Virus record (IMG/VR): IMGVR_UViG_3300010340_001609
Coordinates: 28,325-92,324 of that record
Direction: 5' to 3' (one strand)
Source of the DNA: a virus
Lineage: Duplodnaviria; Caudoviricetes
Length of the DNA: 64,000 nucleotides
The notes beneath the pieces are model-generated. The model was not told the DNA's origin, searched no databases, and saw only the letters and a list, made by a program, of their open reading frames with translations. How positions within the stretch are numbered: the stretch's first letter is position 1; each line of letters begins with the position of its first letter. The position numbers and the translations under genes are program-made. This document shows positions 9,067 through 56,178 of the stretch, piece after piece.

Positions 9067-9107
9067 TTTATATTAGTTTGAAGTTTAATTAAAAAAAAAT
9101 AAATTGT

Positions 9108-39754: not shown

Positions 39755-40927
39755 TTAACCTATTTCCAGTTCAGTTTCGTCGTGATTTTTCCTCATATAA
39801 TCATAAGCATCTGAAAGTGATCCTAGATTTTTATAAAATGCTGAAAGACCATATTTGTTCAAAGAAACTTCTCCACACATGATCATATCTTTGTCAATTT
39901 GTTTTGTACTTAAAACAGTTTTTATTTGTGGAACACTCCATATTTTTAAATTTTTATCACTGAAGTTTTCTCCGTTTACTACCAATTCCAAATATGGCTT
40001 ATTTGCTTTTGAAACTTTTTCAGTTATTTTTCTAACAATAAACCAAACAGCAGCTTTGACCTCCGCTTCTGGATTTTCCAGAAAATCTGGTGTTTCAATT
40101 TTGTCAATTGAAATTAGATCCATTTCTTTTATCACTTGTGAATACTCCTCATCTAAAATTAGACTAATGTCCACGCTTCCAGCCAATTCCATCCAAAAAC
40201 TTATTTTTTGAGCTTTAGTCCAATCTGGTGAATTTATAATTTCTTGTTCTTTGGTAAGCGCCTCTATTAATGGTTTGATTTCATTATTTTTCTTTCTGTT
40301 CATCGTTTTTTTAATTTCATCAAATGGTTCAATAATAACATTATAAAGTTGTTTATAGTTTTTATATTTCTTGTTTTGTCCAACGATGTGCAAACTGTCT
40401 AACGCTTCTAGGCAAACTAAGTTTGTTAAACTTTTTTTATTAAATTTAGAGTGTCTTTTTGTCCCATCTGGATTGACGAATAAGTCTTCAATTGAAGAAT
40501 AAGGTTTATATTGTTGAATTTCTTCAAGTGCAGCATTTCCAATTCCAGAAATTGTGGTCAACCCTGGAACTATAGTTTTTTCTTCTTTAGGGTGCATTTC
40601 ATAACCTGCCCCAGAAAAATTAATATCTGGTTTTGAAAACTTATAACCTAATTTTTGAGCCTCTCTCATTGCCACTGTTTTTGGATCTTCTTGTCCTACA
40701 ACTTTCCCTTTTTCTAAGGCGGCATAATCTAAAGCAGAAGTTATCCATTCATCTGGGTAATATTTTAGCAAATAAGCGCATTGATATGTTGCTATCGAAT
40801 ATGAAATCGCGTGAGAATTTGAAGTTAATAATCCATTTTCAAGATAAAATTGATGATCTTCATGTTCCACTTCTAAATCGTATGTTTGTTCTTCTCCTAG
40901 ATATTCAAATGACACTACTTTTGGCAT
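39755..40927 (-). CDS. dnaE: DnaE fragment 5 of 5: IntC4 (37 aa) plus C-terminal extein (353 aa; fingers end, HhH, OB)
   Basis: TYDLEV...HQFYLENGLLTSN|SHAISYS..YQCAYLLKYYP, PDINFS, GLTTISGIG HhH motif. Confidence 0.92.
   Translation of the reverse strand: MPKVVSFEYLGEEQTYDLEVEHEDHQFYLENGLLTSNSHAISYSIATYQCAYLLKYYPDEWITSALDYAALEKGKVVGQEDPKTVAMREAQKLGYKFSKPDINFSGAGYEMHPKEEKTIVPGLTTISGIGNAALEEIQQYKPYSSIEDLFVNPDGTKRHSKFNKKSLTNLVCLEALDSLHIVGQNKKYKNYKQLYNVIIEPFDEIKKTMNRKKNNEIKPLIEALTKEQEIINSPDWTKAQKISFWMELAGSVDISLILDEEYSQVIKEMDLISIDKIETPDFLENPEAEVKAAVWFIVRKITEKVSKANKPYLELVVNGENFSDKNLKIWSVPQIKTVLSTKQIDKDMIMCGEVSLNKYGLSAFYKNLGSLSDAYDYMRKNHDETELEIG
40817..40927 (-). mobile_element. Split intein 4, C-half
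   Basis: Blocks F/G: YDLEV...HQFYLENGLLTSN; +1 residue is Ser. Confidence 0.9.
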
Positions 40928-41897
40928 ATTTTTCTCCTATGAATATTAAACCTGTCTTTATTTCATTTATTTGAGCATTAATATGCTGCTCTAATTCATC
41001 CATATATTTCTTTTTAAGTTTTGTTTTTTTATAATTTAATACATCATATGAAAGTCTTATTATTAAGAATTTTTCCTTTAAATAAGAATTAAATTCCTTA
41101 TCTTTATTTTGAATTTTTTCTAATATTTCTTTATTAAAGAATCTAAAATGTAAGATTCCGTCATATTCAATTATTAATTTTAAATCATTACATTTAATGT
41201 CTATTTGTCTCCATTTTGTTTTAGTAGTAAAATTTATATTATGTTCAAACTGATTTCTTTTAAATTTTAGTTTAGAATATTTGTTCTTAAGATGATTAAA
41301 AAGGATTTCTTCTCCTTTACTTTTAAAGGAAACATTTTTACAAAGTTTAATAATACATTTTTTAAAAAAAAGATTTGGGTTTTCTTTTCTCCATTTTTCA
41401 AGTCGTTTGCTTCTTTGTATTAAAATTTCAGGTCTACTTGATGTTTTTATCGCAGTTTTAGACGATAATTCTACATTGTTTTCTCTAAATTTTGGATCTT
41501 TCCAAAGATTTGACAATAATATTGACCTTCTTTTTCTTTCATTTTGATTATTTAATATATTTTTGGAAACGTTAAATTTCATTTTAGAAATTTTTTCTTC
41601 ATATAAAGAAGGATTTTCTCTTTTATATTTTGTAACCCAATTTTCTCTTCCTTTTTGAGCAGCAGATCTTTTTTCAAAAGAATTTGAAGTTTTTTGTATT
41701 AAAAATTTTTCATTTGGATGATTTGAATTATAATGATTTTTTAATTCTCTAAAATTAAGTTTACATATATCACATTTTAGATAATCTTTACCTTCAATTC
41801 CTATAAGGATAATACAATCTTTTCTATGCTTAACTTTTTTACAAAAAGTACATCGAGGTGTACGTTTTTGAGCTTTTTTTATTATTTTATTAGTCAT
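40905..41897 (-). CDS. Free-standing endonuclease (Vsr/DUF559-like PD-(D/E)XK with Zn fingers) between IntN4 and IntC4; putative homing endonuclease
   Basis: CxxC..H..C and CxxC...H...H at the N-terminus; SKGEE.LF...QF...IDI...LIIEYDG.LH...KD. Confidence 0.75.
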   Translation of the reverse strand: MTNKIIKKAQKRTPRCTFCKKVKHRKDCIILIGIEGKDYLKCDICKLNFRELKNHYNSNHPNEKFLIQKTSNSFEKRSAAQKGRENWVTKYKRENPSLYEEKISKMKFNVSKNILNNQNERKRRSILLSNLWKDPKFRENNVELSSKTAIKTSSRPEILIQRSKRLEKWRKENPNLFFKKCIIKLCKNVSFKSKGEEILFNHLKNKYSKLKFKRNQFEHNINFTTKTKWRQIDIKCNDLKLIIEYDGILHFRFFNKEILEKIQNKDKEFNSYLKEKFLIIRLSYDVLNYKKTKLKKKYMDELEQHINAQINEIKTGLIFIGEKYAKSSVI

Positions 41898-42192
41898 TAA
41901 CTATTTCCAGATTTTCTTTTATTATTTGTTTTATAGGTAACATTCGTCCATCTTTCACTCTAAATTTATGGTCCATAGAACATATTACTTCAACTCCATT
42001 ATCTAGTAAAAATTTAAAAACAGGTATTTTTCCGTGATTATGAAGTTTTTTTACTTTTACAAAAATAGTTTGTTTTGTTTTTTCATCTCTTGATTTAACA
42101 AATTCATTTGACTGAATCTTTTCAATCGTTTTAGTTGTTTTATATATTCCGTTTTTATTATAAATTGGAATTTTAGTGTCTGATTTCAAACT
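41890..42192 (-). mobile_element. Split intein 4, N-half
   Basis: Block A SLKSDTKI (Ser nucleophile); block B ICSMDHKF. Confidence 0.85.
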
Positions 42193-43149
42193 TGCATTGA
42201 ACGAGTATGCGACCAAAGCCTCCATTTTATCAAAAAATGCGGCAGATTTTGCACTGTCAATATTTGCGAATTTTTTTGTTTTATCCACAAACTCTTGTTT
42301 GAGTTTTTCCCTTTCTTTTGCAGCTTTCTCTTTATTACTTGTTTCCTTTTTCGTGAAGGCTTTTCGAACGGAGTCTGTCTCATCCAGCGGCATTCCACAA
42401 AGTTTTGCATAGATCAACTGTAATTGTTCCTGAAATATTAAAAGACCACTTGTGGGTTTCAAGACATCTTCAAGTAATGGATGTTCATACTGGATTTTAT
42501 CTGGGTTCGCTCTGTTATTTAAGAATAACTTATCCACTTTTAATCCCAGCGGTCCTGGGCGGTGTATTGAGGTCGCTATTGCAATATCTCTAATTGAGAC
42601 TGGTTTCATTTTTCTCATAAACTCTTGAGTATTTGGTTTTACAAATTGAAATATTGAAAAGAAATTTCCATTCCAAAAAACATGTTTATAGACTTCTATG
42701 TCGTCAAAATTGTTATTATCTGGTGATAGATGTTTTTGAAACCACTCATTAATTTGTTCAAAACTCGGCTCTTTTATTCCGTGATATTTAATCAGAATTT
42801 TTCTAACTGTGTTTTCAAACATTCTAAGAGTTCCGAGTGCCAAAAAGTCAAATTTTAAAAACCCAAAGTGTTCTAACATTCTGAAGTTAACTCCTTCCGT
42901 CCAAGGAGTTTGAAGACTTCTTTTTTCATTCTTGCCGCCTATTATCAGTGGCATATTCTCTTTTTCCAAGGGCGAGTCCGTCAACACCACGCCGCCCGCG
43001 TGCCGCCCGCAATTTGAAATTAATCCAGCTTCCGTTAAAAGGTTCGGTTGATTGTCGATAAACACACTCGGAGAGACGTTGTGATGAAGGTCATAGACTT
43101 TGTGTTTTCCGTCGAGTTTTTTTATTGATATGATTTTTCGGTTATTCAT
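41890..43149 (-). CDS. dnaE: DnaE fragment 4 of 5: IntC3 (46 aa) plus extein (273 aa) plus IntN4 (100 aa)
   Basis: GLISN|CGRHAGGVV, FLKFDFLALGTL (third catalytic Asp), IFQF, HRPGP, IFQEQL, YSFNA|SLKSDTKI...CSMDHKF. Confidence 0.93.
   Translation of the reverse strand: MNNRKIISIKKLDGKHKVYDLHHNVSPSVFIDNQPNLLTEAGLISNCGRHAGGVVLTDSPLEKENMPLIIGGKNEKRSLQTPWTEGVNFRMLEHFGFLKFDFLALGTLRMFENTVRKILIKYHGIKEPSFEQINEWFQKHLSPDNNNFDDIEVYKHVFWNGNFFSIFQFVKPNTQEFMRKMKPVSIRDIAIATSIHRPGPLGLKVDKLFLNNRANPDKIQYEHPLLEDVLKPTSGLLIFQEQLQLIYAKLCGMPLDETDSVRKAFTKKETSNKEKAAKEREKLKQEFVDKTKKFANIDSAKSAAFFDKMEALVAYSFNASLKSDTKIPIYNKNGIYKTTKTIEKIQSNEFVKSRDEKTKQTIFVKVKKLHNHGKIPVFKFLLDNGVEVICSMDHKFRVKDGRMLPIKQIIKENLEIVND
43012..43149 (-). 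mobile_element. Split intein 3, C-half
   Basis: KIISIKK...KVYDL...AGLISN; +1 residue is Cys. Confidence 0.85.
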
Positions 43150-43600
43150 ATTTTCTTTTTATTTTTCTTTCTAAGAAGTTTATATCAAACGTTTGCGTAT
43201 TATTTTTTCTTAAAAAAATACTTATTTCCTGTTCATTCACAAATTTTTTAAGCTCAACATCATAAAGCAAATTTGATATTATACAGATGTTTGAATTTAA
43301 CAATAATGTTTTTTCATCTTCATATTTTTTTATTTTAAATAAAAAAGTACTTCTTTCTTTTAAAGAAGAAGAGCATAACCATAACATGGTTTTCAAAAAA
43401 TTGTATTCAAAACCTGAATTGTAAATTGAAAGATTTATAACTGGGTATTTGTCTGCAAATTCATTTAAAAGAATTTCATTGGAACAAGAAAAATTAGAGT
43501 TATCTACGACTGAGGAATAATTCAAATTAATCAAATTTTCAAAAAAGAGTAAACGTTCAAATATATGAGTTGAGTAGTTTTCTAACTTCATCACATCCAT
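43142..43600 (-). CDS. Hypothetical protein inserted between IntN3 and IntC3
   Basis: 152 aa; overlaps both flanking dnaE fragments; no motif recognised. Confidence 0.5.
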   Translation of the reverse strand: MDVMKLENYSTHIFERLLFFENLINLNYSSVVDNSNFSCSNEILLNEFADKYPVINLSIYNSGFEYNFLKTMLWLCSSSLKERSTFLFKIKKYEDEKTLLLNSNICIISNLLYDVELKKFVNEQEISIFLRKNNTQTFDINFLERKIKRKYE

Positions 43601-43872
43601 CCAATCAAACTATCATCTGATGACAAATCAATTACTTTTTTCCATCCTTTATCTGTTTGCACTAAATGGTCTTCTGTTAATTTAATAGTCTTACCATCAC
43701 TCATAGTAATCTCATATAGTTCTTTTTCACCATTTTCTATTTTAAAATAATCTGAATTAAACTGCAATTCACCAGTAGTATCAACAAACGCAATTTTATC
43801 AACATCTTCTTTTATGTTTTTAAATGCTTTCCAACCATTGTTTGTCATAATAATGGTATCCTCCGTAAAACA
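43591..43872 (-). mobile_element. Split intein 3, N-half
   Basis: Block A CFTEDTIIMTNNGWK; block B IKLTEDHLV..DKGWK. Confidence 0.9.
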
Positions 43873-44268
43873 AGACTTAATTTGTTTAAATAAGATTTTT
43901 AGGCTTGATTCAAGTTGTGGATATTCTTCTAATAATTCATTAAACGTCGGAGAATTTTTCTCCGCACTTTCATATGAAAGAAACCAGACGCCTCTATCGA
44001 AACCATCTTGTTGCTTGTCTGCTGCCAATGTTTCCTTTTCTATCTGTTGGGTTACAGGATTTATAAGTTCAAATGGTATTTGATAGAGTCTTGCCAAATC
44101 TTTAATTAAAGATTTTAGCTGTAACTGGTTATAGTTTGAAACTGGCAAAACTGATTCTTCGCCAAAATGCTCAGTCAATATCTTAATGGCTTCTTCCCGA
44201 TCAGCACAATCGCTATTGTGACTAACAATCGAAAATCCACTTTCATAGAATGAATGTAGTTTTTTCAT
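43591..44268 (-). CDS. dnaE: DnaE fragment 3 of 5: IntC2 (18 aa) plus extein (114 aa) plus IntN3 (93 aa)
   Basis: SIVSHN|SDCADREEAI...FG..SV..VSNY...KSLIKDLAR...QIKS|CFTEDTII...LTEDHL. Confidence 0.92.
   Translation of the reverse strand: MKKLHSFYESGFSIVSHNSDCADREEAIKILTEHFGEESVLPVSNYNQLQLKSLIKDLARLYQIPFELINPVTQQIEKETLAADKQQDGFDRGVWFLSYESAEKNSPTFNELLEEYPQLESSLKILFKQIKSCFTEDTIIMTNNGWKAFKNIKEDVDKIAFVDTTGELQFNSDYFKIENGEKELYEITMSDGKTIKLTEDHLVQTDKGWKKVIDLSSDDSLIGWM
44215..44268 (-). mobile_element. Split intein 2, atypically short C-half
   Basis: MKKLHSFYESGFSIVSHN; +1 residue is Ser. Confidence 0.8.
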
Positions 44269-44295
44269 TTAGTATTTTCCTCATTTCCTTTTGCT

Positions 44296-44754
44296 TCATT
44301 CCAGGCAATCTTGCTGTAATCCATAATTTTTTTCTACTTTCAAAATTCCATTTTCTTCCAAAACATTAAATGGTATAATATTAAAACTTTTTGTTGATTC
44401 TATACTAATATCAACCAGTTCAACTTTTTGATTGTTTAATTTTCTTTTTTCTACTATCGAACAATTTATATGATTTGATTTAATCAAATCACCAACATTT
44501 AACGAATAAACATTTTTAATTGAAGAATTTTCAGTGAAAAATCTATGCTTACCAGTTGCAATTATACAACCATAACAATCATTGATTTTTACGAAAATTT
44601 CAAATAAATCATCAGTTTCACACGAAACTCTTTGCGAAGTAAATAAAACTCTTTCTTTTTCGTTAAAAATATTGATGATAAAATCACCTTGTTTAATGTT
44701 TTTGATTTTCTTATACCCAGTCGTTGTTGGGACTAATGTATTTGCTTCTAAACA
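44296..44754 (-). mobile_element. Split intein 2, long N-half
   Basis: Block [11 protein letters not shown]; block B IATGKHRF; also contains block-F-like [14 protein letters not shown]. Confidence 0.85.
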
Positions 44755-44979
44755 ATCAATATCTGGAAGTCCTGCCTTTTTCTTACTAAGAAATCTTTCA
44801 AATAACAATCCATGTTTTACAGGATCTACTTGAGTTATCCCAGTTGCATAACAAACCAAAGATCCTGCACCAGAATTATGTACTGGTATACCCTCTACAT
44901 TATAAGAATTCTTATTCTCAACAGAGAGATCATATACTTTTCCTTTATATTTTGAGTATGATTTATTCTTCAGTTTCAT
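44296..44979 (-). CDS. dnaE: DnaE fragment 2 of 5: IntC1 (35 aa) plus extein (40 aa) plus IntN2 (152 aa)
   Basis: VYDLSV...IPVHN|[40 protein letters not shown]|CLEANTLV...ATGKHRF. Confidence 0.93.
44875..44979 (-). mobile_element. Split intein 1, C-half
   Basis: [22 protein letters not shown]; +1 residue is Ser. Confidence 0.92.
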
Positions 44980-45271
44980 TTATTATTATTCCTAGCTTTT
45001 TTTGATTCAGCAATATTTGTCCCAAAAAAACAACTTTCCTGTCAATTCCAACAGATGCTACTATATTCATTTGTCCATAAAAAATAACATATATTATGTT
45101 ATAATATCCATCTAACAAATATTCTGTTAGTATTTCTGATGATAATACTATGTTGTCATTAATATCTGATTCATATTTTACTTTTTTCTCTAATCTTTTC
45201 TGAAAGAAGGCAAAGTCAATATGAAAATTTATTTTTTCTTTATCTTTTTCATTTTTTATTGATACAATCAT
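44963..45271 (-). CDS. Hypothetical protein
   Basis: 102-aa ORF overlapping pth2 and dnaE fragment 2. Confidence 0.45.
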
Positions 45272-45675
45272 AATAATTTTAATTCTCTTGTGAGTTCATC
45301 TATTCTAGATGCCTCATGCGGGCCTATCGCCATGCAGGTTCTAGTAGACACTCCATTAAATTCAGTCAAGCCTGAATCTGTTATTAAATGAGTGACTAAT
45401 CCTTTAGATTTGGCATTTTCAAAAAGTAAAAGAAGTTCATCTTCTGAATTTACATAAACACAAATTTTGCGTTGACCTGTATTAATCCAATTTAATTCCT
45501 CTTCTGAATATTCAAAATTTTTTGTTTTTATTTTTTCAAGTAAAAAAGCAATACTTGCGTGCGCAATTTGAGCTGCTATTTTACCCTTTCTTACATTTAA
45601 ATCTTTACGCCAAATTAGCACTTGTTTTACGTTTATATCATTCATGATTTCATAATTAAAATTATGAATATACAC
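45268..45675 (-). CDS. pth2: Peptidyl-tRNA hydrolase, Pth2 type
   Basis: KQVLIWRKDL..RKGKIAAQIAHAS, DSGLTEF, TCMAIGP, IDELT..LKLL; likely start at 45645. Confidence 0.92.
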   Translation of the reverse strand: MYIHNFNYEIMNDINVKQVLIWRKDLNVRKGKIAAQIAHASIAFLLEKIKTKNFEYSEEELNWINTGQRKICVYVNSEDELLLLFENAKSKGLVTHLITDSGLTEFNGVSTRTCMAIGPHEASRIDELTRELKLL

Positions 45676-46989
45676 TTTGAAATATATTTTGAAAATTTAA
45701 AAATTAAATTGAAAAAAGAATTTGATTCCGAATCAATAAAACTGTTCGAAGAAGCCGTTTCTATTTGTAGAATTAAATTAAAAAAACACGGACTATATGA
45801 AACTTGGAAGCCGTATGAATATGTTTCAATTTCAAAAAATCAATCATTTTTATTTGAAGAAATTAGCAGTGAAATTCCTGCCGATGTAAATGCTGCAATG
45901 AGTTCACAAATAGCTGCCATTAAAAATTTAAGAAAATGGTTTATGTCTTTACCCGAAAAAAAGCAAACAATAATAAATTCAAAGTCTGTTGATCTTCTTA
46001 AATCAAGAAAAAATTTTTTTGCCGAACTAGAAGATTTGGAAGATGAAATTAATGGAATATATGGAAAATTACAAAAAGGTGGTTTTTTTAGTAAGTTAGC
46101 AAAAAAAGGGTTTGGTTTTTTTCAACGTGGAATGAGTAGTCTTGGAGCTGGTGAAGTTACAAATACTAATATAGATGAAAAACTTTCTGGTGCATTGTTA
46201 TCAACAAACAGCGAACTGTTTAGTCAAGTACGTGATGCAATTTCAAATATTGTAGCAGATGAAAAAAGAAACTTGATTGGAAGGGAAATGGTAAATCAAC
46301 TTTCAAGAAGATTTAATGTCAATCCACATGATATTGCAAATGCAGCTCACTCAATTGGAGTGAATGTTCAAGGTACATTAGGAACAGTTTCTTCTCCTCA
46401 AAATGTTGCTGCTGCGGCAACTGTTGCTAATCAACCAACCACCGCAGCAACCGCGGTTGGATCTAAATTAGGAATGCCATTAATGGCAAAAATGGGAATC
46501 GGTGCGGGTGTTTTTGCTTTGGTTGCCGCAGGCGCCGCTGGTATGAAAATGAGAAGTAGAAGAAAACGCATAGAAAATTTGCAAAAAGTCGCAAAATTAT
46601 TCGGAGCTAAAAATGACATTATCACAAATGTTGTGGTTGACAATAATATTGAAAATTTAAAAAATCAAAATCAATTAGGTTCTGGAGTTATTTCATCTAA
46701 AGAATTGCCGTCGGGAGAAACACCTAAACAGTTAATGCCAGGGGATGATTATTTAAATTCAAAAACGAATACCAACCTTCTAAATCCACCACCATCAAAC
46801 AAAGAAGAAGCTAAAAAATTTCTTCAATTGGATCCAACAACAGAAGATCACTTAGCAATAAAAAAAGCTGAAGATACAATACAAAAAATAAGAGACAACC
46901 AAGTTAAACTTCATAAACTTGAAACTAATGTAATACTTGCCAGAAAACATTTAATCAATGAAATTAAATTAAAGAAAATTATATTTTAA
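45622..46989 (+). CDS. Putative internal virion protein with a hydrophobic Ala/Gly segment
   Basis: Likely start at 45664 after TAATTA; LFEE motifs; MGIGAGVFALVAAGAAG followed by a basic cluster. Confidence 0.5.
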   Translation: MFYVYIIHDFIIKIMNIHFEIYFENLKIKLKKEFDSESIKLFEEAVSICRIKLKKHGLYETWKPYEYVSISKNQSFLFEEISSEIPADVNAAMSSQIAAIKNLRKWFMSLPEKKQTIINSKSVDLLKSRKNFFAELEDLEDEINGIYGKLQKGGFFSKLAKKGFGFFQRGMSSLGAGEVTNTNIDEKLSGALLSTNSELFSQVRDAISNIVADEKRNLIGREMVNQLSRRFNVNPHDIANAAHSIGVNVQGTLGTVSSPQNVAAAATVANQPTTAATAVGSKLGMPLMAKMGIGAGVFALVAAGAAGMKMRSRRKRIENLQKVAKLFGAKNDIITNVVVDNNIENLKNQNQLGSGVISSKELPSGETPKQLMPGDDYLNSKTNTNLLNPPPSNKEEAKKFLQLDPTTEDHLAIKKAEDTIQKIRDNQVKLHKLETNVILARKHLINEIKLKKIIF

Positions 46990-46992
46990 TAA

Positions 46993-47415
46993 TCACATAA
47001 AGATACCAGTTATTTTTTTATAATCTATTTCAACATTAGTAAATCCTTTATCGAAAACAATTGATACTTCAAAAAGTGATTTGTTTTTAATAAATTCTAA
47101 TTGATAAAATTCTTCGCAAGGAAAAATTTCATATAAAGATTTATAAAAAGAATATCTCCGATAAATTTCTTTTTCGTTTAAAACTTGATAACAATGATTT
47201 ATGGAAAAAAGTGCTTGTTCATATTGGTCAATTTCAATTCGTATTGAATATTTTATATCGGATAACAAAATAAAATTTTGTTTTTTAATAAAAGCAATGT
47301 TTTTTTCAGATTCATAATCTTGAAAGAAAGAAAAATTTTTTTTATACATATTATCCACAAGTGATAATACTTTTTTTAAAAATTCTTCTTCTTCGAAGCT
47401 TTTAATGCTATTCAT
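46993..47415 (-). CDS. Hypothetical protein
   Basis: 140-aa ORF overlapping the thyA stop. Confidence 0.45.
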   Translation of the reverse strand: MNSIKSFEEEEFLKKVLSLVDNMYKKNFSFFQDYESEKNIAFIKKQNFILLSDIKYSIRIEIDQYEQALFSINHCYQVLNEKEIYRRYSFYKSLYEIFPCEEFYQLEFIKNKSLFEVSIVFDKGFTNVEIDYKKITGIFM

Positions 47416-48281: not shown

Positions 48282-48900
48282 AAAGATTTTTTAATTCTAG
48301 ATTATTTTTAGATTTTAATAATCCATAAGATAATAATCTGTGAGTTCCATCTATTATTTTATATGTTCCAGTTGAAGTTTTACAAACAACTAATCTATTT
48401 GTTGCTACCCAAATATTTTTAGAATTTAAAATTTTTTGCGATGTAATTTCTTTTGTTTTTGGTAATTTTACTTCATTTATTTCAAACCAAGATTCAAGAG
48501 ATTTCATTCTCTTTCTTATATCTTCTATTGCATCAATAGATTTTTCAATGTCTTCTTTATTTTTTCTTATGATTTTAAACCCTTTATTTTTCGATATGGA
48601 CAATTTATAATTGTCCAAAAATGTCTCAAACGAGATATTCGAAAAACAGGATTCAAAACTCATTAATTCTTCAAACGAAAATTTTGCAAATGTAATAGAT
48701 GAATTTTTCATAAATTCTGATATATATTTTCTTTTTGAATCAAAAACTGTTTCTCTTAGTTTGTTTTGAATTTGACAAGAGAAATTAGGATCTTCAATTA
48801 ATGAAGAATTTAATAGTTTAATATTGTCTATTAATGCGTGATCGCCATTCAACATGGACCATATTAAAAATTCTTTATTTGTTGTTTGTATTATTTTCAT
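48247..48900 (-). CDS. Hypothetical protein with ParB/Srx-like motif
   Basis: LVVCK...YKIIDGTHRL. Confidence 0.5.
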   Translation of the reverse strand: MKIIQTTNKEFLIWSMLNGDHALIDNIKLLNSSLIEDPNFSCQIQNKLRETVFDSKRKYISEFMKNSSITFAKFSFEELMSFESCFSNISFETFLDNYKLSISKNKGFKIIRKNKEDIEKSIDAIEDIRKRMKSLESWFEINEVKLPKTKEITSQKILNSKNIWVATNRLVVCKTSTGTYKIIDGTHRLLSYGLLKSKNNLELKNLYGFYFEEQKDK

Positions 48901-49235
48901 TCGATTATATATTTTTCCATTCCAGGAATTATTATTTTTTCTTGAATCCCATCCTTGTCAATATATTTCCAAATTTGAACAATTGGATACTCAGGATGAA
49001 CTTCTTTTGAGAGAATTATAAATTTACTTAAATCAAGTTTATTGCGATGAAAATACCAAATACGGTGTCCATTTAACCACCAGGATTTTTTACCATTTTC
49101 CCAAATAACCGCTGGCCCATCTTCTCTATGGTTGCTGCCGTTTTTATACCACCAATTATCTCCATTGCTCCATTCAATGATTCCCGTATAATCATCTGGG
49201 ATTTCACTCCAATGTTTTATTTTTATGGTTTTCAT
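48897..49235 (-). CDS. HREDGP-motif protein, tandem copy A
   Basis: YTGIIEW..G..WWYKNG..HREDGPA. Confidence 0.75.
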   Translation of the reverse strand: MKTIKIKHWSEIPDDYTGIIEWSNGDNWWYKNGSNHREDGPAVIWENGKKSWWLNGHRIWYFHRNKLDLSKFIILSKEVHPEYPIVQIWKYIDKDGIQEKIIIPGMEKYIIE

Positions 49236-49582
49236 TCAGTTATATATTCTTTCATCCCAGGGTTTATCACTTGTTCTTGAATTCCATTCTGATCAATATA
49301 TTTCCAAATCTGAACTGTTGGGTATTCAGGATGAATCCCTTTTGAGAGAATGATTTTGTTTTTTAAATTAAGTTTATTCCAACGGGAACTCCAAATCATT
49401 TTATTATCCAAATACCAGGCTTTGTCATCATTTTCCCAAATAATCGCTGGGCCATCTTCTCGATGCCATTTTTCATTTTTATACCACCATTTATCTCCAT
49501 TTTCCCATTCAATAATTCCCGTATAGTTATCTGGAACTTCGGTCCAATGTTTTGCTTTTATTGTTATCATTCTATAATCCAC
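49232..49582 (-). CDS. HREDGP-motif protein, tandem copy B
   Basis: Paralog of copy A. Confidence 0.75.
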   Translation of the reverse strand: MDYRMITIKAKHWTEVPDNYTGIIEWENGDKWWYKNEKWHREDGPAIIWENDDKAWYLDNKMIWSSRWNKLNLKNKIILSKGIHPEYPTVQIWKYIDQNGIQEQVINPGMKEYITE

Positions 49583-49917
49583 TCTTCCATTCCAGGAATT
49601 ATAATTTGTTCCTGAATTCCATTCTGATCAATATATTTCAAAACTTGGCAAGTTGAATATCCTAGATGCGGCTCTTTCAAAAGAACTATATATTCATTTA
49701 AATCAAGTTTATTTTGATTAGAATACCAAATACGGTATCCATTTAACCACCAGGATTTTTTGCCATTTTTCCAAATAACCGCTGGTCCATCTTCTCGATG
49801 CCACTTTCCGTTTTTAAGCCACAATTCATCCCCATTCTCCCATTCAATAATTCCTGTATAGTGTTTTGGAACATCCTCCCAATGTTTCACTTTTATCGTT
49901 TTCATTCTATAAACCAC
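49567..49917 (-). CDS. HREDGP-motif protein, tandem copy C
   Basis: Paralog of copy A. Confidence 0.75.
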   Translation of the reverse strand: MVYRMKTIKVKHWEDVPKHYTGIIEWENGDELWLKNGKWHREDGPAVIWKNGKKSWWLNGYRIWYSNQNKLDLNEYIVLLKEPHLGYSTCQVLKYIDQNGIQEQIIIPGMEEWIIE

Positions 49918-50240
49918 TCTTCCATCCCAGGAATCACAATTTGTTCTTGAATTCCATATTCATCAATATATTTGAATAGTTGACAAGCTACATACAATGG
50001 ATGTGGTTCTTTCGAAAGAATTATTCTATTTCTTAAATCTAATTTATCCCAACTAGAATTCCAAATATATTTTCCATCTAACCACCATTCTTTCTCTCCG
50101 TTATAATAAATAAATGATGGTCCATCTTCTCGATGCCGTTTTCCATTTTTATACCACCATTTTGAACCACTTAAGAATTCAACAATTCCTGTATAATTGC
50201 TTGGAATTTCATAACCCGTGTTTGCTTTTATTGTATTCAT
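49902..50240 (-). CDS. HREDGP-motif protein, tandem copy D
   Basis: Paralog of copy A. Confidence 0.75.
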   Translation of the reverse strand: MNTIKANTGYEIPSNYTGIVEFLSGSKWWYKNGKRHREDGPSFIYYNGEKEWWLDGKYIWNSSWDKLDLRNRIILSKEPHPLYVACQLFKYIDEYGIQEQIVIPGMEEWFIE

Positions 50241-50816
50241 TTACACAATTTCTTTTTTTATATTATATTTTTTCAGCACATATCTTTCATAAAAGATATT
50301 TTCTTTGCTGTTATCATTTTTAAAATATGATTTTTCATCTAATAAAGAAACTTTTTCCTCTTGAAACCATTGATTTGAGTCAATTAAAGATTTGGGTGAA
50401 AAATCTATTTTTTTATCAAAAACATTGACTTTTTTCTGGTTGATTGTTTCAGATAATTCTGAAAAATAAATCTCATCAACCAATGAAAATAGCTGTCTAT
50501 AAATTTCTGATCCACCTATAATAAAAATTTTATTATTAACTGAATAAATGATTTCTTTGTTTTGCTCTTTCCATTCATCAACTGATGAAAATATTTTGAT
50601 TCCTTCTTTTTGAGCTAAAGTTTTTGAAATAACATGATTGATTCTATTAGGAAGAGGTTTTCCAATTGATTCGAAAGTTTTTCTTCCCATTACAATCATG
50701 TTATTACTCGTCAAAGTTTTGAACCACTTTAGATCAGAAGGAAGAAACCAAGAAAGGGCATTATCGTTTCCGATATGCCCTTCTTTAGTTGCTGCGACAA
50801 TTAACGCTACCGTCAT
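50241..50816 (-). CDS. folA: Dihydrofolate reductase
   Basis: LIVAA....IG.DNAL.W.LPSDLKWFK..T, VMGRKTFESIGKPLPNRINHVIS, FIIGGSEIY. Confidence 0.95.
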   Translation of the reverse strand: MTVALIVAATKEGHIGNDNALSWFLPSDLKWFKTLTSNNMIVMGRKTFESIGKPLPNRINHVISKTLAQKEGIKIFSSVDEWKEQNKEIIYSVNNKIFIIGGSEIYRQLFSLVDEIYFSELSETINQKKVNVFDKKIDFSPKSLIDSNQWFQEEKVSLLDEKSYFKNDNSKENIFYERYVLKKYNIKKEIV

Positions 50817-50827
50817 AGTAGCATATG

Positions 50828-52540
50828 TTACTTCTGATTTTTCGTGCTGTCAAGTGTCAAGCGAGCGATTACAGACATTACAAACACGTTGCCCAAGGTC
50901 CAAACTAGCATAGGAAACCAGCCGAAAGGAAAGGCGTGCAAACCACTCAAGAAAGTGCCTAGCAGAAATGCTGAAGTTCCGAGTGTAAAGCCGCCAATGG
51001 GTGCTCTTAGAGCTTTATTGGAATAGAATGTTCCAATCAAGACAAGAGGCAGAAAAGCGCTTCCAAGTGGAAGAAACTGATGAATGAATGTATTTGTAAA
51101 GAATGTCAATTCTCCTGGCGGGACAGTTAGAATTTTAGGCAACGAGAATGGCAGCCACATTGTTAGAATACTAAGACCAAAAGTCGCATACATTGCTGGG
51201 AATAGCCAGCGTTTTTGATCTTCTACTTTGCCGCCTTTTTTGGCAATGGCGGCCATTATAAGTGCTGTCATTAACATAAATGAAAACCCTCTCCAAAGGG
51301 ATTTTTTCATCTCAATTTTTGAAACAGCATTTTTTGCTGAAACAACTCCAGCACCATAAAGTTCTGGACTTCTGTCTCTATGTTCTGGCACTTCCGCAGA
51401 TGATCTTAAAATAGATTCAACTGCGGAAGGATCTGTCACTCCCATAGAAACAATCAACGCAGCAACTCCTGCAACGTGTGGCGCAGCCATTGAAGTTCCG
51501 CTCCACGCAACAAATTGTTCACAGCCATTTCTGCCTCTGTCACAAATAGTTTGTTGAGGAATATTGACACCAGGGGCCGCAATTGCAATTTCAGTTCCTC
51601 TAGAGCTAAATTCTGCAATTACATCCCCTGGTCCAATTGCACTAACTGCAAAAGATCCAGGTTCATTTGCAGGCGATTCTACTCTGTGTCCATTGTTTCC
51701 CGCAGCGCAGATAACAACAGAACCTCTCGCCCTCGCATAAGCTACAGCTTCCGCCATAATTGGGTTTCTAGGCCCTCCACCAAGAGAAAGGTTAATTACA
51801 TTTGCACCGTTATCGGCAGCAAACCTAATTCCTTCCGCAACATCGGCCAAAGTACCAGAACCTCTGGAATCCAGCACTTTAACAGGAATAATTGTAGAAC
51901 AATGTGCAATCCCCGCAAACCCAACGCCGTTATTTGTTGCTTGCGCAATTGTTCCAGCAACATGACTTCCATGACCTTGATCGTCGGATGCTCTATTCGT
52001 ATCATTAACAAAGTTCCATCCTTCGACACAATTTGTCGTGTTAAGATCGGAAAGTCTTTGGAAGTTTCCGTGTGTCTCGCACGCAACACCAGTATCAACC
52101 ACAGCTACTCTAACATTTCTTCCGCAAGTTTGGTTCCATGCTTGTTCTACGCCAATTCGACGTAGGCCCCATTGTTCTGAAAATCTAGGATCATTTGGAG
52201 TCCAAAACATTCTCATAACATGATTTTGTTCCGCCCCCTGTACGTTTGATTCGTTGCGAATACGCGAAATAATGCTGTTTCCAGCATTTGCTTCCGCTCT
52301 AAATAAATAAATTCTATCTGAATTTACCATTTGTGGGCTATTTGCCTGTAGATTGATTCCATAGCGCTGAGAAACTTCCCTGATTGAAGTTTCTGATGCC
52401 GAATCCTGAAAATCGACAACAAATTCCTGTTCAGAACTTGATTGTCCAGATTCATCATTAAATGTTGCGTGTTGCGCAGCCGCGGCACTCGGAAACAACG
52501 CAGAAACGAGAAGTACAGAGAGACTAGTTAGCTTTTTCAT
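50828..52540 (-). CDS. Subtilisin-like S8 serine protease with signal peptide, prodomain and C-terminal membrane domain
   Basis: VAVVDTG (Asp), GHGSHVAGTI (His), SGTSMAAPHVAG (Ser); several C-terminal TM helices; visibly higher GC than flanks. Confidence 0.93.
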   Translation of the reverse strand: MKKLTSLSVLLVSALFPSAAAAQHATFNDESGQSSSEQEFVVDFQDSASETSIREVSQRYGINLQANSPQMVNSDRIYLFRAEANAGNSIISRIRNESNVQGAEQNHVMRMFWTPNDPRFSEQWGLRRIGVEQAWNQTCGRNVRVAVVDTGVACETHGNFQRLSDLNTTNCVEGWNFVNDTNRASDDQGHGSHVAGTIAQATNNGVGFAGIAHCSTIIPVKVLDSRGSGTLADVAEGIRFAADNGANVINLSLGGGPRNPIMAEAVAYARARGSVVICAAGNNGHRVESPANEPGSFAVSAIGPGDVIAEFSSRGTEIAIAAPGVNIPQQTICDRGRNGCEQFVAWSGTSMAAPHVAGVAALIVSMGVTDPSAVESILRSSAEVPEHRDRSPELYGAGVVSAKNAVSKIEMKKSLWRGFSFMLMTALIMAAIAKKGGKVEDQKRWLFPAMYATFGLSILTMWLPFSLPKILTVPPGELTFFTNTFIHQFLPLGSAFLPLVLIGTFYSNKALRAPIGGFTLGTSAFLLGTFLSGLHAFPFGWFPMLVWTLGNVFVMSVIARLTLDSTKNQK

Positions 52541-52585
52541 TTTTCTTCTTTCGTTGTGGTTTATTGCAGTCGTTCAGTCCACCCC

Positions 52586-52613
52586 ATGATAAGCACCGCG
52601 AGCGCGGCGTCAA
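52586..52613 (-). promoter_or_regulatory. Sigma70-type promoter with GC-rich spacer, upstream of the S8 protease
   Basis: TTGACG-ccgcgctcgcggtgct-TATCAT. Confidence 0.65.
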
Positions 52614-52659
52614 CCGCAAATTCTTAAATCTCATCACACATTGTTAATGTGCGCAGGTC

Positions 52660-52896
52660 TTATACATGTTTTTCATATTGAAAAACATTTTTTATAAATG
52701 CATGGAAGTATTTTCCCTTGGATTCTGAATTTTTAAATTCAAACCAAGTTTCTTCTGATACTCCTTTATATTCATAAACCGAACCATTTGTTTTAAATTG
52801 TAACTTTAATCTATGGTACAAAGGGTTATATTCAGCTTTTAAAAGTAACTTACTACTTTCAGTATCGAATTGTTCTGTTGTTAGTGTATCTATCAT
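52660..52896 (-). CDS. KTSC-domain protein
   Basis: SS.L....YNP....L.LQFK.NGSVYEY.GV....W..F..SESKGKYF...IK. Confidence 0.85.
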   Translation of the reverse strand: MIDTLTTEQFDTESSKLLLKAEYNPLYHRLKLQFKTNGSVYEYKGVSEETWFEFKNSESKGKYFHAFIKNVFQYEKHV

Positions 52897-52929
52897 TTTT
52901 TATTAATCTCTTTTAACTATTTTTTTCTC

Positions 52930-53361
52930 TTAGATTTTGTTTATTACAACTTTAGACATTGGAAGATATCTTCCAGAAAAAACTCTTTTTACATGCTTTA
53001 TTTGTTTACTATCAACAAAATAAAAATTAAAATTTTGATGTTTTAGTGAATCTGCTAAAACTTTCTCCTTTTTATACAAATTTTTTTCTTCAAGAACAAG
53101 AAGAAGAGTTAAATCACTCTGTTTGGTATTTTTTGAAAAAAAATTTTTATTCGACGGAAGAGGAATTAAATTTTTATATTTTTGTCCAAATTTCTTAATA
53201 GAATTTTTTATTTTTCTATTCATTTTTGCTACTTCAACAAAGTACAATCCTTGTTTATAAAATGTGTTTATATTAACTTTAATTGATGTTTTTTCAAAAA
53301 TAAGAGAATTATAATTGATTAATAAATGATAATAAAAAGTAACTAAATCTGATTTATTCAT
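52930..53361 (-). CDS. Hypothetical basic protein
   Basis: 143-aa ORF. Confidence 0.45.
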   Translation of the reverse strand: MNKSDLVTFYYHLLINYNSLIFEKTSIKVNINTFYKQGLYFVEVAKMNRKIKNSIKKFGQKYKNLIPLPSNKNFFSKNTKQSDLTLLLVLEEKNLYKKEKVLADSLKHQNFNFYFVDSKQIKHVKRVFSGRYLPMSKVVINKI

Positions 53362-53386
53362 TTTAAACCACTTGTTTCAAATGCAC

Positions 53387-53416
53387 AAAAACCCATAAAG
53401 AATATCTTTATGGGTT
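53387..53416 (-). terminator. Intrinsic-terminator-like hairpin
   Basis: AACCCATAAAGA-ATA-TCTTTATGGGTT 12-bp stem with a short T tract on the minus strand; second hairpin TATTGTCT-AATA-AGACAATA at 53422-53441. Confidence 0.6.
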
Positions 53417-53451
53417 CGATTTATTGTCTAATAAGACAATAGACTATTGTG

Positions 53452-53880
53452 TCAAACTCTTTTTGAGTTCATTGCTTTTACATAAGTTGTAAAAAATGAA
53501 CCCGCCGATTTACGGCGACGCCATGACATAGCCATTTCTTTAGTGAAGCCTTCGTAGAGATATCTATCACCGTTTTTGAAAACTACGGTCATATTACCCA
53601 TGACAGGATTGCTTTTATTTGTGGCTACCCAACGGAAACTTTTAATAAAAGTGCTTTCTTCAAATTTGTGTTCAATTGTAAACAATGCGTTGTGCGCAAC
53701 TTTTGTAGTTGTATTTTTTGTTGAAGGTGTTGTTCTCTTTAACTTTGGATGAATTTTTGATCCAATTGTTTTATTAGTAGTAGTTGTTGATGATGATTTT
53801 GACATTTTTCTTGTTGATGATTTTTTCGTAGTCATTTTTCTTGTGTTTGTGTTTGTTTTTGTCTTTGTCATGGCACACAT
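53452..53880 (-). CDS. KTSC-like domain protein with Lys/Thr-rich N-terminal tail
   Basis: ESTFI.....MTVVFKNGDRYLYEG......W....SAGSFFTTYVK; likely leaderless start at 53871. Confidence 0.65.
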   Translation of the reverse strand: MCAMTKTKTNTNTRKMTTKKSSTRKMSKSSSTTTTNKTIGSKIHPKLKRTTPSTKNTTTKVAHNALFTIEHKFEESTFIKSFRWVATNKSNPVMGNMTVVFKNGDRYLYEGFTKEMAMSWRRRKSAGSFFTTYVKAMNSKRV

Positions 53881-53906
53881 TATAAGGCGCCGTGAGCGGC
53901 CGTCAA
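53879..53906 (-). promoter_or_regulatory. Sigma70-type promoter with GC-rich spacer
   Basis: TTGACG-gccgctcacggcgcct-TATAAT, with ATG 7 nt downstream. Confidence 0.7.
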
Positions 53907-53923
53907 CCCCTCGCGACTAATTT

Positions 53924-54157
53924 TCAATCCTCGTTGTGTTTGACTTTATATTGAATAAAGTGTTGTTGTACAACTTTTAATTCATCAAAAGTTAATCCAA
54001 TAGAATCTTGTTGACCACTAACATTTATAAAAAAAACTTCAGAATATCTTTGCCTGTCGTATCCATGATCGTCAAACAAAACAACGGTTCTTGCTCTTAT
54101 GACAAGATCTTTTTTTTCTCCTAAAGTTTCTTCACGAATTATCTTCTGCTTTAACAT
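53924..54157 (-). CDS. Hypothetical protein
   Basis: 77-aa ORF. Confidence 0.45.
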   Translation of the reverse strand: MLKQKIIREETLGEKKDLVIRARTVVLFDDHGYDRQRYSEVFFINVSGQQDSIGLTFDELKVVQQHFIQYKVKHNED

Positions 54158-54497
54158 TAATTTGTTCCTCTTGTTTTTTTTCTTCTAATTCATCTAGAAT
54201 AGCTTTAATTCCTAAAAATGTATATCCATTACAATCAAGATATGCATCTAATCTACCTTCTTCTGGTGGCAATAAACTACTATTTGCTATTCTACTTAGT
54301 TTATCTAAAACTCTAACAATAAACATTAAATCTGAATATTGTTCTGGAACAACGCCATCTGGAAAAAGAAGTTTAAGATGTTCTGATGTTTTATTGAAAG
54401 AATTTCCATATGCTTTATTTTTCTTTTCTAGTAATTCAGCCTGTGTCGTTGCAATTTCTAAAAATGTTTTACCCATAAACAAATGATAAACACACAT
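54132..54497 (-). CDS. DUF1599-like / nucleotide-modification-associated all-alpha protein
   Basis: LLEKKNKAYGNSF...RVLDKLSRIAN...DAYLDCNGY. Confidence 0.6.
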   Translation of the reverse strand: MCVYHLFMGKTFLEIATTQAELLEKKNKAYGNSFNKTSEHLKLLFPDGVVPEQYSDLMFIVRVLDKLSRIANSSLLPPEEGRLDAYLDCNGYTFLGIKAILDELEEKKQEEQINVKAEDNS

Positions 54498-54518
54498 AAT
54501 ACATTGCGCAATAGAAAA

Positions 54519-54785
54519 CTATTCTTTTTCTACTGGGAGATTTATATATACAACAACGATCGTATATTTGCCACGCATTGATTGCGAAGATTTCAAGTAA
54601 TTCATCACTGAAATTTCAGCCGCCTCCCAAGAATCAAATAATGGATCTGTTTTTCCATCTATTGTTACAGATTCAAAAAATTCATTTACAATCCGAAATT
54701 TTTTATGGGGCACGAGTTTAAAATCATGAGAACTAATTTTTCTTGGGGATAAATCATTTCTCTGCCCCGTTTTTTTATTTTTCAT
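54519..54785 (-). CDS. Hypothetical protein
   Basis: 88-aa ORF. Confidence 0.4.
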   Translation of the reverse strand: MKNKKTGQRNDLSPRKISSHDFKLVPHKKFRIVNEFFESVTIDGKTDPLFDSWEAAEISVMNYLKSSQSMRGKYTIVVVYINLPVEKE

Positions 54786-55179
54786 TAAATTCCTTTAAGT
54801 TTATTTTAATAGAAGGAATTCCTTTTAAAAATTTTTTATTTTCCAAATATTCTTGAAACCCAGAAAAAACATAAAAAATTTCCTTGGTAACTTTGTTTTG
54901 ATACATTATTGTTGGAAAATAAAAATTGATTATATCTTTTTCATCTTTATATTTTCCCATATCAACAATCTTATATTGAGTTTTGAAAAATTTCCTTACA
55001 GTTCTCCTTGTAATGATTTTAACAGGCTCTAATTCTTTTATTTCATTTTCTGTAAGTGAAACGGCATTAAAATAACATCGTTCATCATATTCATCTTGAA
55101 TTATTTCAAAAAACATGAAATACGTTGTTGTTTTGCCCACTTTTGTTATACAATTCTTTAAAAGTTTTCTTGTGAGCAT
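54775..55179 (-). CDS. Hypothetical protein
   Basis: 134-aa ORF with AAGGTG RBS-like site. Confidence 0.45.
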   Translation of the reverse strand: MLTRKLLKNCITKVGKTTTYFMFFEIIQDEYDERCYFNAVSLTENEIKELEPVKIITRRTVRKFFKTQYKIVDMGKYKDEKDIINFYFPTIMYQNKVTKEIFYVFSGFQEYLENKKFLKGIPSIKINLKEFNEK

Positions 55180-55205
55180 TGTCCACCTTATTAATAAGTA
55201 TATGA

Positions 55206-55520
55206 TTATTCTTTTGAGTCAGTTTGCATTATAGCAATAATATGCTTTATTAACTTTTGTGGATCTGTTATTAACTCTTTATTTGTTTCTATTGAAACAG
55301 AAATCAAACTTGTTAAGGCTTCAATTTCAAAATAAATATTTTTAAATGATAAAGTTGTCATTATTACCACAAATATATTTTCTAACACATCATCAGATTT
55401 AGAATTTTCGATCGAGGAAAATTGATTTAATTCATCAATTTTTGAATTTAAAAATTCAATTTGTAATTCAGTAAGATCATCATAAATACCTTCGTTTTCT
55501 AGTGCGATTTTATTTATCAT
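55206..55520 (-). CDS. Hypothetical acidic protein
   Basis: 104-aa ORF with AAGG upstream. Confidence 0.45.
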   Translation of the reverse strand: MINKIALENEGIYDDLTELQIEFLNSKIDELNQFSSIENSKSDDVLENIFVVIMTTLSFKNIYFEIEALTSLISVSIETNKELITDPQKLIKHIIAIMQTDSKE

Positions 55521-55530
55521 TTTTACCTTT

Positions 55531-55878
55531 TCATATTGGGATTACATTTGCTTTTACTAAGGAAATTATTTCTCTTAAAATTTCTGTATTTGTGTATTTT
55601 CTATCTGTTATAGATTCAACGAGTTTTAATATTTCATTAATGTCAGGTATATTTCCAATAATTTTAATAGTCATGATTATAGCGTTTTCCAAAGATGACC
55701 ATTCAATTTTCTTTTTGGATACCCAGGCACTATATTTAAAATTATGGATTTTTAAACAGTTTTTACTACAACAGGAAACATTTGCAGATCTATCAAGAAA
55801 TTTTTGTTCATCTGAAGGTATAAAAAGATACCCGCAATTAGCACAAAAAATTTGATAAAAAATCATTATGGTACCCAA
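55531..55878 (-). CDS. Small zinc-finger protein
   Basis: CANCG...CCSKNC. Confidence 0.5.
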   Translation of the reverse strand: MGTIMIFYQIFCANCGYLFIPSDEQKFLDRSANVSCCSKNCLKIHNFKYSAWVSKKKIEWSSLENAIIMTIKIIGNIPDINEILKLVESITDRKYTNTEILREIISLVKANVIPI

Positions 55879-55896
55879 TATTAGATATGTTGTAAG

Positions 55897-56178
55897 TCAA
55901 TTACTTACTTTTTCAAAATCATCAAATTCTGATAATTCTTCTGCGGCAACCCAACCCCTATTTTTTGTTAAGAATTTATGATCTTTTGTACAAGAAATTT
56001 TCGTACCGTCTTCAAATTCAAGATTAATAATTTCTTCATCTACTTCATAATCCCATAATTCAAGAACTTGCTGAATACTTCCATCATGAGTATAAACATA
56101 ATCTTCTGTTTTTATATCTTTAATTGCTACATATCGATTTTTTTCTGGTCTATGAATTTTTGTCTCTGGCAGAAAACA
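55897..56178 (-). mobile_element. Split intein 1, N-half
   Basis: Block A CFLPETKI; block B ISCTKDHKFL; ends at a stop with no block F/G. Confidence 0.92.

Follow-up and report, generated by a model that had tools for sequence, protein, structure and literature searches.

Environmental phage-like replication genes, DnaE among them, are known to occur as "fractured genes" that are broken at intein insertion sites, with a canonical split between the intein motifs N4 and C2, a free-standing open reading frame (ORF) between the two intein halves and, at one DnaE locus, part of a second intein (Dassa, London, Stoddard, Schueler-Furman and Pietrokovski 2009; PMC2677866). The same features, namely breakage at intein sites, the canonical split and the free-standing ORF between halves, occur in the stretch of DNA analysed here as a whole, hereafter the window, which consists of the last 64 kb of the 92.3-kb IMG/VR virus record IMGVR_UViG_3300010340_001609 (GC content of about 29%; a fragment, with a CheckV completeness of 25%). 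The uncultured phage encodes one DnaE-type DNA polymerase III (Pol III) alpha subunit as five consecutive minus-strand ORFs, with four split inteins between them. Compared to those fractured genes, the window combines four split inteins and five pieces in a single gene, with the halves of one intein lying about 11 kb apart, whereas those of intein 2 are separated by 27 nt with no intervening gene, this intein being split 18 aa from its C-terminus. Taking together the data presented below, we think it probable that the halves of each pair are drawn together by matched charges, that the charges of intein 4 have been reversed, and that correct pairing depends mainly on the divergence of the four inteins, without a charge code having been selected for it.

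The five pieces are collinear on the DnaE profile phrog_405 (profile positions 36-406, 407-446, 452-541, 545-794 and 793-1027 for pieces 1 to 5), and the Pfam domains follow one another across them in the order PHP, DNA_pol3_alpha, DNA_pol3_finger and HHH_6, in addition to the Hint/intein matches. All on the minus strand, they are as follows: piece 1 (55897..57741; 614 aa) comprises the N-extein with the PHP domain and the start of the palm (56179-57741), and then the N-terminal half of intein 1 (IntN1); piece 2 (44296..44979; 227 aa) comprises the C-terminal half of intein 1 (IntC1), an extein ending in the catalytic PDID motif (44755-44874), and IntN2; piece 3 (43591..44268; 225 aa) comprises IntC2, an extein (43873-44214) and IntN3; piece 4 (41890..43149; 419 aa) comprises IntC3, an extein with the finger domain (42193-43011) and IntN4; and piece 5 (39755..40927; 390 aa) comprises IntC4 and the C-extein with HHH_6 (39758-40816). 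The original prediction had assigned the IntC-extein-IntN layout to pieces 2, 3 and 4 and had placed the eight halves; both hold, the exteins of these pieces being 40, 114 and 273 aa long. The junctions were confirmed through the relatives of this phage, which were collected by two scans of IMG/VR (160 loci), the GenBank phage collection containing no close relative (every match was below 32% identity). One of these relatives, L002, has a contiguous intein-free DnaE (1211 aa; about 58% extein identity), which fixes the insertion points at GRG/S, PDID/SD, KS/CG and FNA/SH (the slash marking the insertion). Removing the intein halves restores a collinear DnaE, the junctions of which exactly match the L002 protein.

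The halves, again on the minus strand, are IntN1 (55900..56178; 93 aa) and IntC1 (44875..44979; 35 aa); IntN2 (44299..44754; 152 aa, matching positions 1-133 of the 137 of Pfam PT-HINT) and IntC2 (44215..44268; 18 aa, consisting of the second block-F strand and block G); IntN3 (43594..43872; 93 aa) and IntC3 (43012..43149; 46 aa); and IntN4 (41893..42192; 100 aa) and IntC4 (40817..40927; 37 aa). In inteins 1 to 4, in that order, the position-1 nucleophile is Cys, Cys, Cys and Ser, the TxxH-type block B reads TKDH, TGKH, TEDH and SMDH, and the C-terminus with its +1 residue is HN/S, HN/S, SN/C and SN/S. Judged by these catalytic residues, by the separate ORFs and by the collinear host protein, the four are classed as naturally split inteins of the HINT superfamily. 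By splicing, these predicted inteins, which look unrelated to one another, should join the five translated pieces to give a single Pol III alpha of about 1300 residues.

Intein 2 is split atypically into 152 and 18 aa, IntN2 running through the first block-F strand and then into a 32-aa tail (44299-44394, minus strand). This tail partly repeats the strand that IntC2 supplies, is kept in the relative L029 (7098-8747; SFQILPFNVM...), and may either be a remnant of the splitting or serve as a placeholder that stands in for IntC2. Pieces 2 and 3 lie in the same reading frame, with 27 nt from the stop of piece 2 to IntC2. Read-through or an alternative genetic code across this gap was considered and rejected, in view of the three different in-frame stops (TGA, TGA and TAA) that are followed by a GAGGA ribosome-binding site and an ATG; the break is a true split. 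Intein 2 is contiguous in the relatives L001 and L005, and the atypical split, with its 18-20-aa IntC2, its HN and its +1 nucleophile, also occurs in the distant relatives L029 (where the IntC is 20 aa long) and P0002, which indicates that the split is old and conserved, not a local accident.

The charged residues of the halves, which had been counted by hand in the original prediction, proved exact on recount: IntN1 has 22 D/E versus 12 K/R and IntC1 has 7 K versus 3 D/E; IntN3 has 19 D/E versus 11 K/R, and its partner IntC3 has the basic head that had been noticed; IntN4 has 21 K/R versus 12 D/E and IntC4 has 9 D/E versus 1 K. Hence, inteins 1 and 3 are acidic in IntN and basic in IntC (net charges of −10 and +4 for intein 1; −8 and +2 for intein 3), intein 4 is basic in IntN and acidic in IntC, and IntN2 is near-neutral. 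The charge sits in the 22 residues before block B of IntN, hereafter the IntN strand (−9, −4 and +4 in IntN1, IntN3 and IntN4), and in the head or the whole of IntC (+6 in the head of IntC1; +5 in the head of IntC3, the remainder of which is −3; −8 in IntC4), i.e. in the segments where published structures place the IntN/IntC interface (PMC2677866; Beyer et al., 10.1101/546465). Equal-length windows slid over the other proteins of the phage, the net charge of which is about zero, served as the reference: on the acidic side, IntN1 ranked at the 2.6th percentile, IntN3 at the 5.3rd and IntC4 within the bottom 1%; on the basic side, IntN4 fell in the top 3.9% and IntC1 in the top 9%, while the complete IntC3 did not stand out. 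Each skew by itself is thus moderate, but for inteins 1 and 4 the combination is improbable. The skews are conserved, too: site 1 is acidic in IntN and basic in IntC in all five relatives from which both halves were recovered, in agreement with the loci that provided a single half, and IntN3 is acidic in five of five relatives.

The charge reversal of intein 4 was likewise verified (+9 for IntN4 and −8 for IntC4), and it leaves the cognate halves charge-complementary. The closest solved relative of both halves is the Npu DnaE intein (E values of 5e-8 for IntN and 2e-5 for IntC). Like the Npu/Ssp DnaE inteins (2KEQ, 4LX3 and 1ZD7), for which "capture and collapse" has been described, intein 4 has a DnaE host, the canonical split and a penultimate Ser-Asn; unlike them, it is inserted four residues downstream (FNK/SH versus AEY/CFNK), it has Ser instead of Cys at both positions 1 and +1, and its polarity (+9/−8) is reversed at aligned positions. 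Over 53 aligned residues, Npu IntN carries −8 and IntN4 +5, a shift of +13 that includes four direct D/E-to-K swaps (hand count), while in IntC the Npu segments RKYLGKQ and ALKNG are replaced by FEYLGEE and LENG, with K-to-E swaps at aligned positions. The interface charges of intein 4 would have been reversed through such compensatory substitutions, E-to-K in IntN and K-to-E in IntC. At an E value of at most 1e-3, the family of intein 4 (site GYGFNK/SH) comprises 211 representative proteins with Ser, Cys or Thr at position 1, and its matches include proteins with the cyanobacterial AEY/C junction, where the insertion lies four residues upstream. Most members have an E-x-E-x-E strand (HDHGVLELFEF...), at which the window has HNHGKIPVFKF. 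By these matches, intein 4 is placed in a large family that includes the cyanobacterial Npu/Ssp DnaE inteins. The gp41-1 intein (6QAZ), which is used as an orthogonal partner of DnaE-type inteins, has an acidic IntC and a basic IntN strand, i.e. the same polarity as intein 4 (10.1101/546465). Membership of intein 4 in the gp41-1 family was rejected, since IntN4 matched 6QAZ only marginally (E value of 0.059) and IntC4 gave no gp41-1 match; intein 4 appears to have reached a gp41-1-like polarity from within the Npu-like family. Thr, apparently at position 1 of the intein 4 family members L045 (8210-11089), P0027, P0034 and P0039, is to our knowledge unusual at that position.

The family of intein 4 provided 34 non-redundant split pairs, both halves of which came from the same locus; the contigs of the strongly basic IntN4 alleles P0085 and P0071 end before the gene of the IntC partner, and IMG/VR loci were used in their place. 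In these cognate pairs, the net charge of IntN was anti-correlated with that of IntC (Spearman rho −0.77, p 1e-7), even more so when the IntN strand was compared with the whole IntC (rho −0.93, p 8e-16). The charge states form a continuum from −11 in IntN and +2 in IntC to +11 in IntN and −8 in IntC, with the window near the basic-IntN end. To limit the influence of relatedness, nearest neighbours were paired on their uncharged positions alone; in 13 of the 15 informative pairs (p 0.004), the charge of IntN had shifted one way and that of IntC the other. The anti-correlation and these opposite changes show that charge co-evolves within a pair, and they support selection of the cognate halves for electrostatic matching through repeated compensatory changes. 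An electrostatic association step is known for the Npu DnaE and gp41-1 inteins; in each canonically split pair of the window, the opposite charges of the IntN strand and IntC would attract the cognate halves to each other, and in the family of intein 4 the charge state would be a labile trait that co-evolves within pairs.

As for the discrimination between pairs, we propose that it most likely rests mainly on the sequence divergence of the four inteins, and that the effects of polarity and of the 18-aa IntC2 would be useful by-products, not a selected code. First, the pairwise identities among the four inteins are 22-35% for IntN and 25-38% for IntC (the 18-aa IntC2 being left out). Second, a published 24x24 test found negligible cross-interaction with the others for 15 of 16 split inteins; the cross-reactions that did occur mostly involved either overlapping fragments of the same intein or very short ones (PMC7090010). 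In another study, an Npu IntN with a swapped strand charge still spliced with the wild-type IntC (10.1101/546465). Third, charge and split position do not cover all combinations: like charge disfavours four of the twelve non-cognate pairs (N1-C4, N3-C4, N4-C1 and N4-C3, where N and C stand for IntN and IntC), the 18-aa IntC2 leaves a strand missing in three (N1-C2, N3-C2 and N4-C2), and five (N1-C3, N3-C1, N2-C1, N2-C3 and N2-C4) are touched by neither. N1-C3 had been presented as the sole remaining risk, which is an undercount, as the other four are no more excluded; the accompanying statement that the N1-C3 product would skip the catalytic extein is correct, this product being devoid of the PDID aspartates, and the loop insertion of IntC3 invoked against it is real (about 8-11 aa between blocks F and G, conserved). 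Fourth, the proposal that each same-chain pair of the window is incompatible holds in part. Like charge would disfavour IntC3/IntN4 (piece 4), and the 18-aa IntC2 does leave a gap with a canonical IntN (piece 3), but IntC1 and IntN2 (piece 2) overlap, without a gap. Overlapping fragments of a single intein still splice (PMC7090010); since overlap is no block, this pair must be kept apart by sequence divergence. The orthogonality of the four pairs of the window is predicted from their 22-38% identity and from the co-occurrence of the same inteins in relatives.

The alternative that survives best, though we regard it as unlikely, is that the mixed polarities and split positions were selected as an orthogonality code against cyclisation and extein skipping, intein 4 having been reversed or recruited for that purpose. 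It would fit with the fact that all three same-chain pairs of the window are incompatible on paper, that all the IntC3-headed chains found have a basic IntN4, including the replaced, 27%-identical allele of L006 and P0157, and that orthogonality can be created by charge engineering, as was done with NpuDnaB (10.1101/546465). However, across 37 natural IntC-extein-IntN chains, no trend was found between the charges of the IntC and IntN of the same chain (rho +0.07, p 0.67, with four charges tallied by hand): 15 pairs were alike, 16 were complementary and 6 had one neutral half, i.e. there is no general same-chain charge rule. Near relatives tolerate canonical, charge-complementary halves on one chain, namely IntC1(+4) with the IntN of an additional intein X (−4 and −1) in L001 and L005, IntC1(+3) with IntN3(−10) in L006, IntC1(+3) with IntN4(−9) in L028, and IntC of site A(−7) with IntN of intein X(+4) in L058, the L006 chain being a single-polypeptide mirror image of the N1-C3 pair. 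Furthermore, basic IntN4 alleles account for about 27% of those on N-pieces devoid of IntC, versus about 30% of those on IntC-headed chains (hand tally); P0006, P0035, P0056, P0085 and P0106 are such alleles on DnaE N-pieces that run from the PHP N-terminus without any other intein (N-exteins of 798-887 aa). Such a code would also leave the five non-cognate pairs listed above uncovered, and the association of IntC3 with a basic IntN4 represents at most two independent events. From the code put forward in the original prediction, the charge complementarity and the reversal of intein 4 are retained, while the code itself and the need for same-chain incompatibility are not, given the absence of a trend in the 37 chains and the complementary chains of the relatives.

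Several points weigh against our proposal that discrimination relies on divergence without a selected code. The 37 same-chain pairs come from metagenomic contigs of assumed viability and are not phylogenetically independent, and net charge is a coarse descriptor. Charge can make a pair orthogonal, as implied by the charge-engineered NpuDnaB and by an earlier report, cited in the same study, that a whole-fragment charge swap of Npu suppressed cross-reactivity (10.1101/546465). Lastly, IntN4 is basic in all the chains found to begin with an IntC3-type head, in two or three allele lineages: Ser1 alleles of +7 to +10 in the window, L001, P0153 and P0001; the Cys1 allele of L006 and P0157 (+7 to +9); and P0068 (+5). 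The whole IntC3-extein-IntN4 piece of P0068 is 39% identical to that of the window throughout and is shared by descent, which reduces the IntC3/basic-IntN4 associations to the two events, at most, mentioned above. Chains with both IntC3 and IntN4 formed four protein clusters in a collection of 5.8 billion proteins, which is too few to test a neighbour effect, and these data leave room for context-specific selection against the IntC3/IntN4 pairing. It also seems doubtful to us that, with an interface charge that may evolve fast while covarying within pairs, multi-split phages give preference, beside particular neighbours, to alleles kept or brought in from the other end of the charge range, as the basic IntN4 lineages behind all the IntC3-type heads found (the replaced allele included) would suggest; in that case, orthogonality would be tuned in nature by swapping the charges of homologous inteins, which is what engineers have done with Npu.

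A further alternative, which we find improbable, is that part of the set is not working, at least one half (most likely of intein 2) having decayed, with a non-covalently assembled polymerase or tolerated mis-splicing, and with charge being irrelevant to specificity. The partial duplication of the IntC2 strand by the 32-aa tail of IntN2 could be viewed as a trace of decay, and the fragmentary record leaves room for a second polymerase. However, none of the four inteins has lost a catalytic residue, the distant L029 and P0002 have kept the short IntC2 with its HN and +1 nucleophile, IntC2 has its own ribosome-binding site, and the conserved DnaE motifs are reconstituted exactly at the junctions. 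Finally, that the skews are the compositional noise of a lysine-rich, AT-rich proteome is scarcely credible, for although the single z-scores are just 1.5-2.6 and the whole IntC3 is not an outlier, the net charge of the proteome is near zero, the two halves of intein 4 have a joint tail probability of about 4e-4, sites 1 and 3 have kept their polarity, and the covariation is strong throughout the family.

The fractured-gene layout and the occurrence of both polarities among natural split inteins were already known (PMC2677866), as was the reversed polarity of gp41-1. In the literature searched, the coverage of which is incomplete and thus no proof of absence, we came across neither a natural gene with at least three split inteins, be it of the present five-piece, four-split-intein type or another, nor a natural 18-aa IntC, nor a within-family covariation placing a charge-swapped Npu-type intein in nature. 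The window provides natural counterparts of three engineered systems: its intein 4 corresponds to the charge-swapped CS-NpuDnaE (10.1101/546465); its IntC-cargo-IntN pieces, the activity of which is predicted, correspond to the set of 15 orthogonal inteins and the one-pot multi-fragment assembly with five inteins (PMC7090010); and its 18-aa IntC2 corresponds to the short IntC generated with C-terminal split sites in Npu (PMC2664965). For the ligation of several protein fragments in one reaction, split inteins that can operate alongside one another are in demand. The phage and its relatives are a source of such a panel in nature, the inteins of which presumably function together, with seven DnaE sites and some inteins available as both split and contiguous forms. 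This panel includes the natural 18-aa IntC, a Ser1/Ser+1 intein with no need for a catalytic cysteine, and natural charge-swapped Npu-like alleles. The family-wide IntN/IntC anti-correlation is comparative evidence for selection on the electrostatic matching of cognate halves, and the lack of a same-chain rule speaks against gross charge as the factor that stops natural multi-intein proteins from cyclising.

The DnaE lineage is a hot spot for inteins, with at least seven insertion sites (L002 numbering): A at 194/195, B at 257/258, 1 at 473/474, X at 508/509, 2 at 514/515, 3 at 628/629 and 4 at 894/895, sites X and 2 being 6 residues apart. Several of these inteins exist in both a split and a contiguous form, depending on the phage; L036 has the contiguous form of intein 1, and L006 that of intein X. 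In L036 (7571-11764), intein 1 is a contiguous 130-aa mini-intein at GRG/S, i.e. a natural fusion of IntN1 and IntC1 and a putative cis-splicing homologue. The nearest relative of the window, L001 (IMGVR_UViG_3300043411_002890), is 89% identical in piece 4 and has a different layout, with the order IntC1-extein-IntN of intein X, an ORF, IntC of intein X-SLPDID-contiguous intein 2-extein-IntN3, another ORF, and IntC3-extein-IntN4. Its additional split intein X (6967-9503) follows FLSKKK and has a Cys-rich ORF of 311 aa between its halves, and the 6-aa extein SLPDID is all that separates it from the contiguous intein 2. In L058 (4860-11767), intein X is +4 in IntN and −12 in IntC, the reverse of the other intein X alleles (−1 to −10 in IntN and about 0 in IntC), so that the charge has flipped in a second lineage as well.

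Between the halves of intein 3 lies an ORF of 152 aa (43142..43600, minus strand), and between those of intein 4 an ORF of 330 aa (40905..41897, minus strand), which is kept in L001. Neither had a match in Pfam, PHROGs or the PDB sequences, and the 330-aa ORF did not resemble the one that separates the halves of intein X in L001; it occupies the spot expected for a free-standing homing endonuclease, and we do not call it an endonuclease. The interval of about 11 kb between the halves of intein 1 (44980-55896) contains thymidylate synthase-like and dihydrofolate reductase (DHFR)-like ORFs, identified from their translations only, a PTH2 peptidyl-tRNA hydrolase, and four tandem paralogues of 112-116 aa (48897-50240). 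In the same interval, a Peptidase_S8 subtilase of 570 aa (50828-52540, minus strand), with an apparent signal-like N-terminus and a hydrophobic C-terminal third, lies in the most GC-rich stretch of the window (about 38% versus about 29%), which suggests that its gene was recently acquired. Elsewhere in the window, a ribonucleotide reductase small subunit (60576-62504, minus strand; Pfam Ribonuc_red_sm in two stretches) is split by an in-frame insert of about 320 aa, which starts with a Cys after GSFE, ends with ...TGN/T and has a weak Intein_splicing match; this insert looks like a candidate fifth intein, contiguous and with room for an endonuclease domain.

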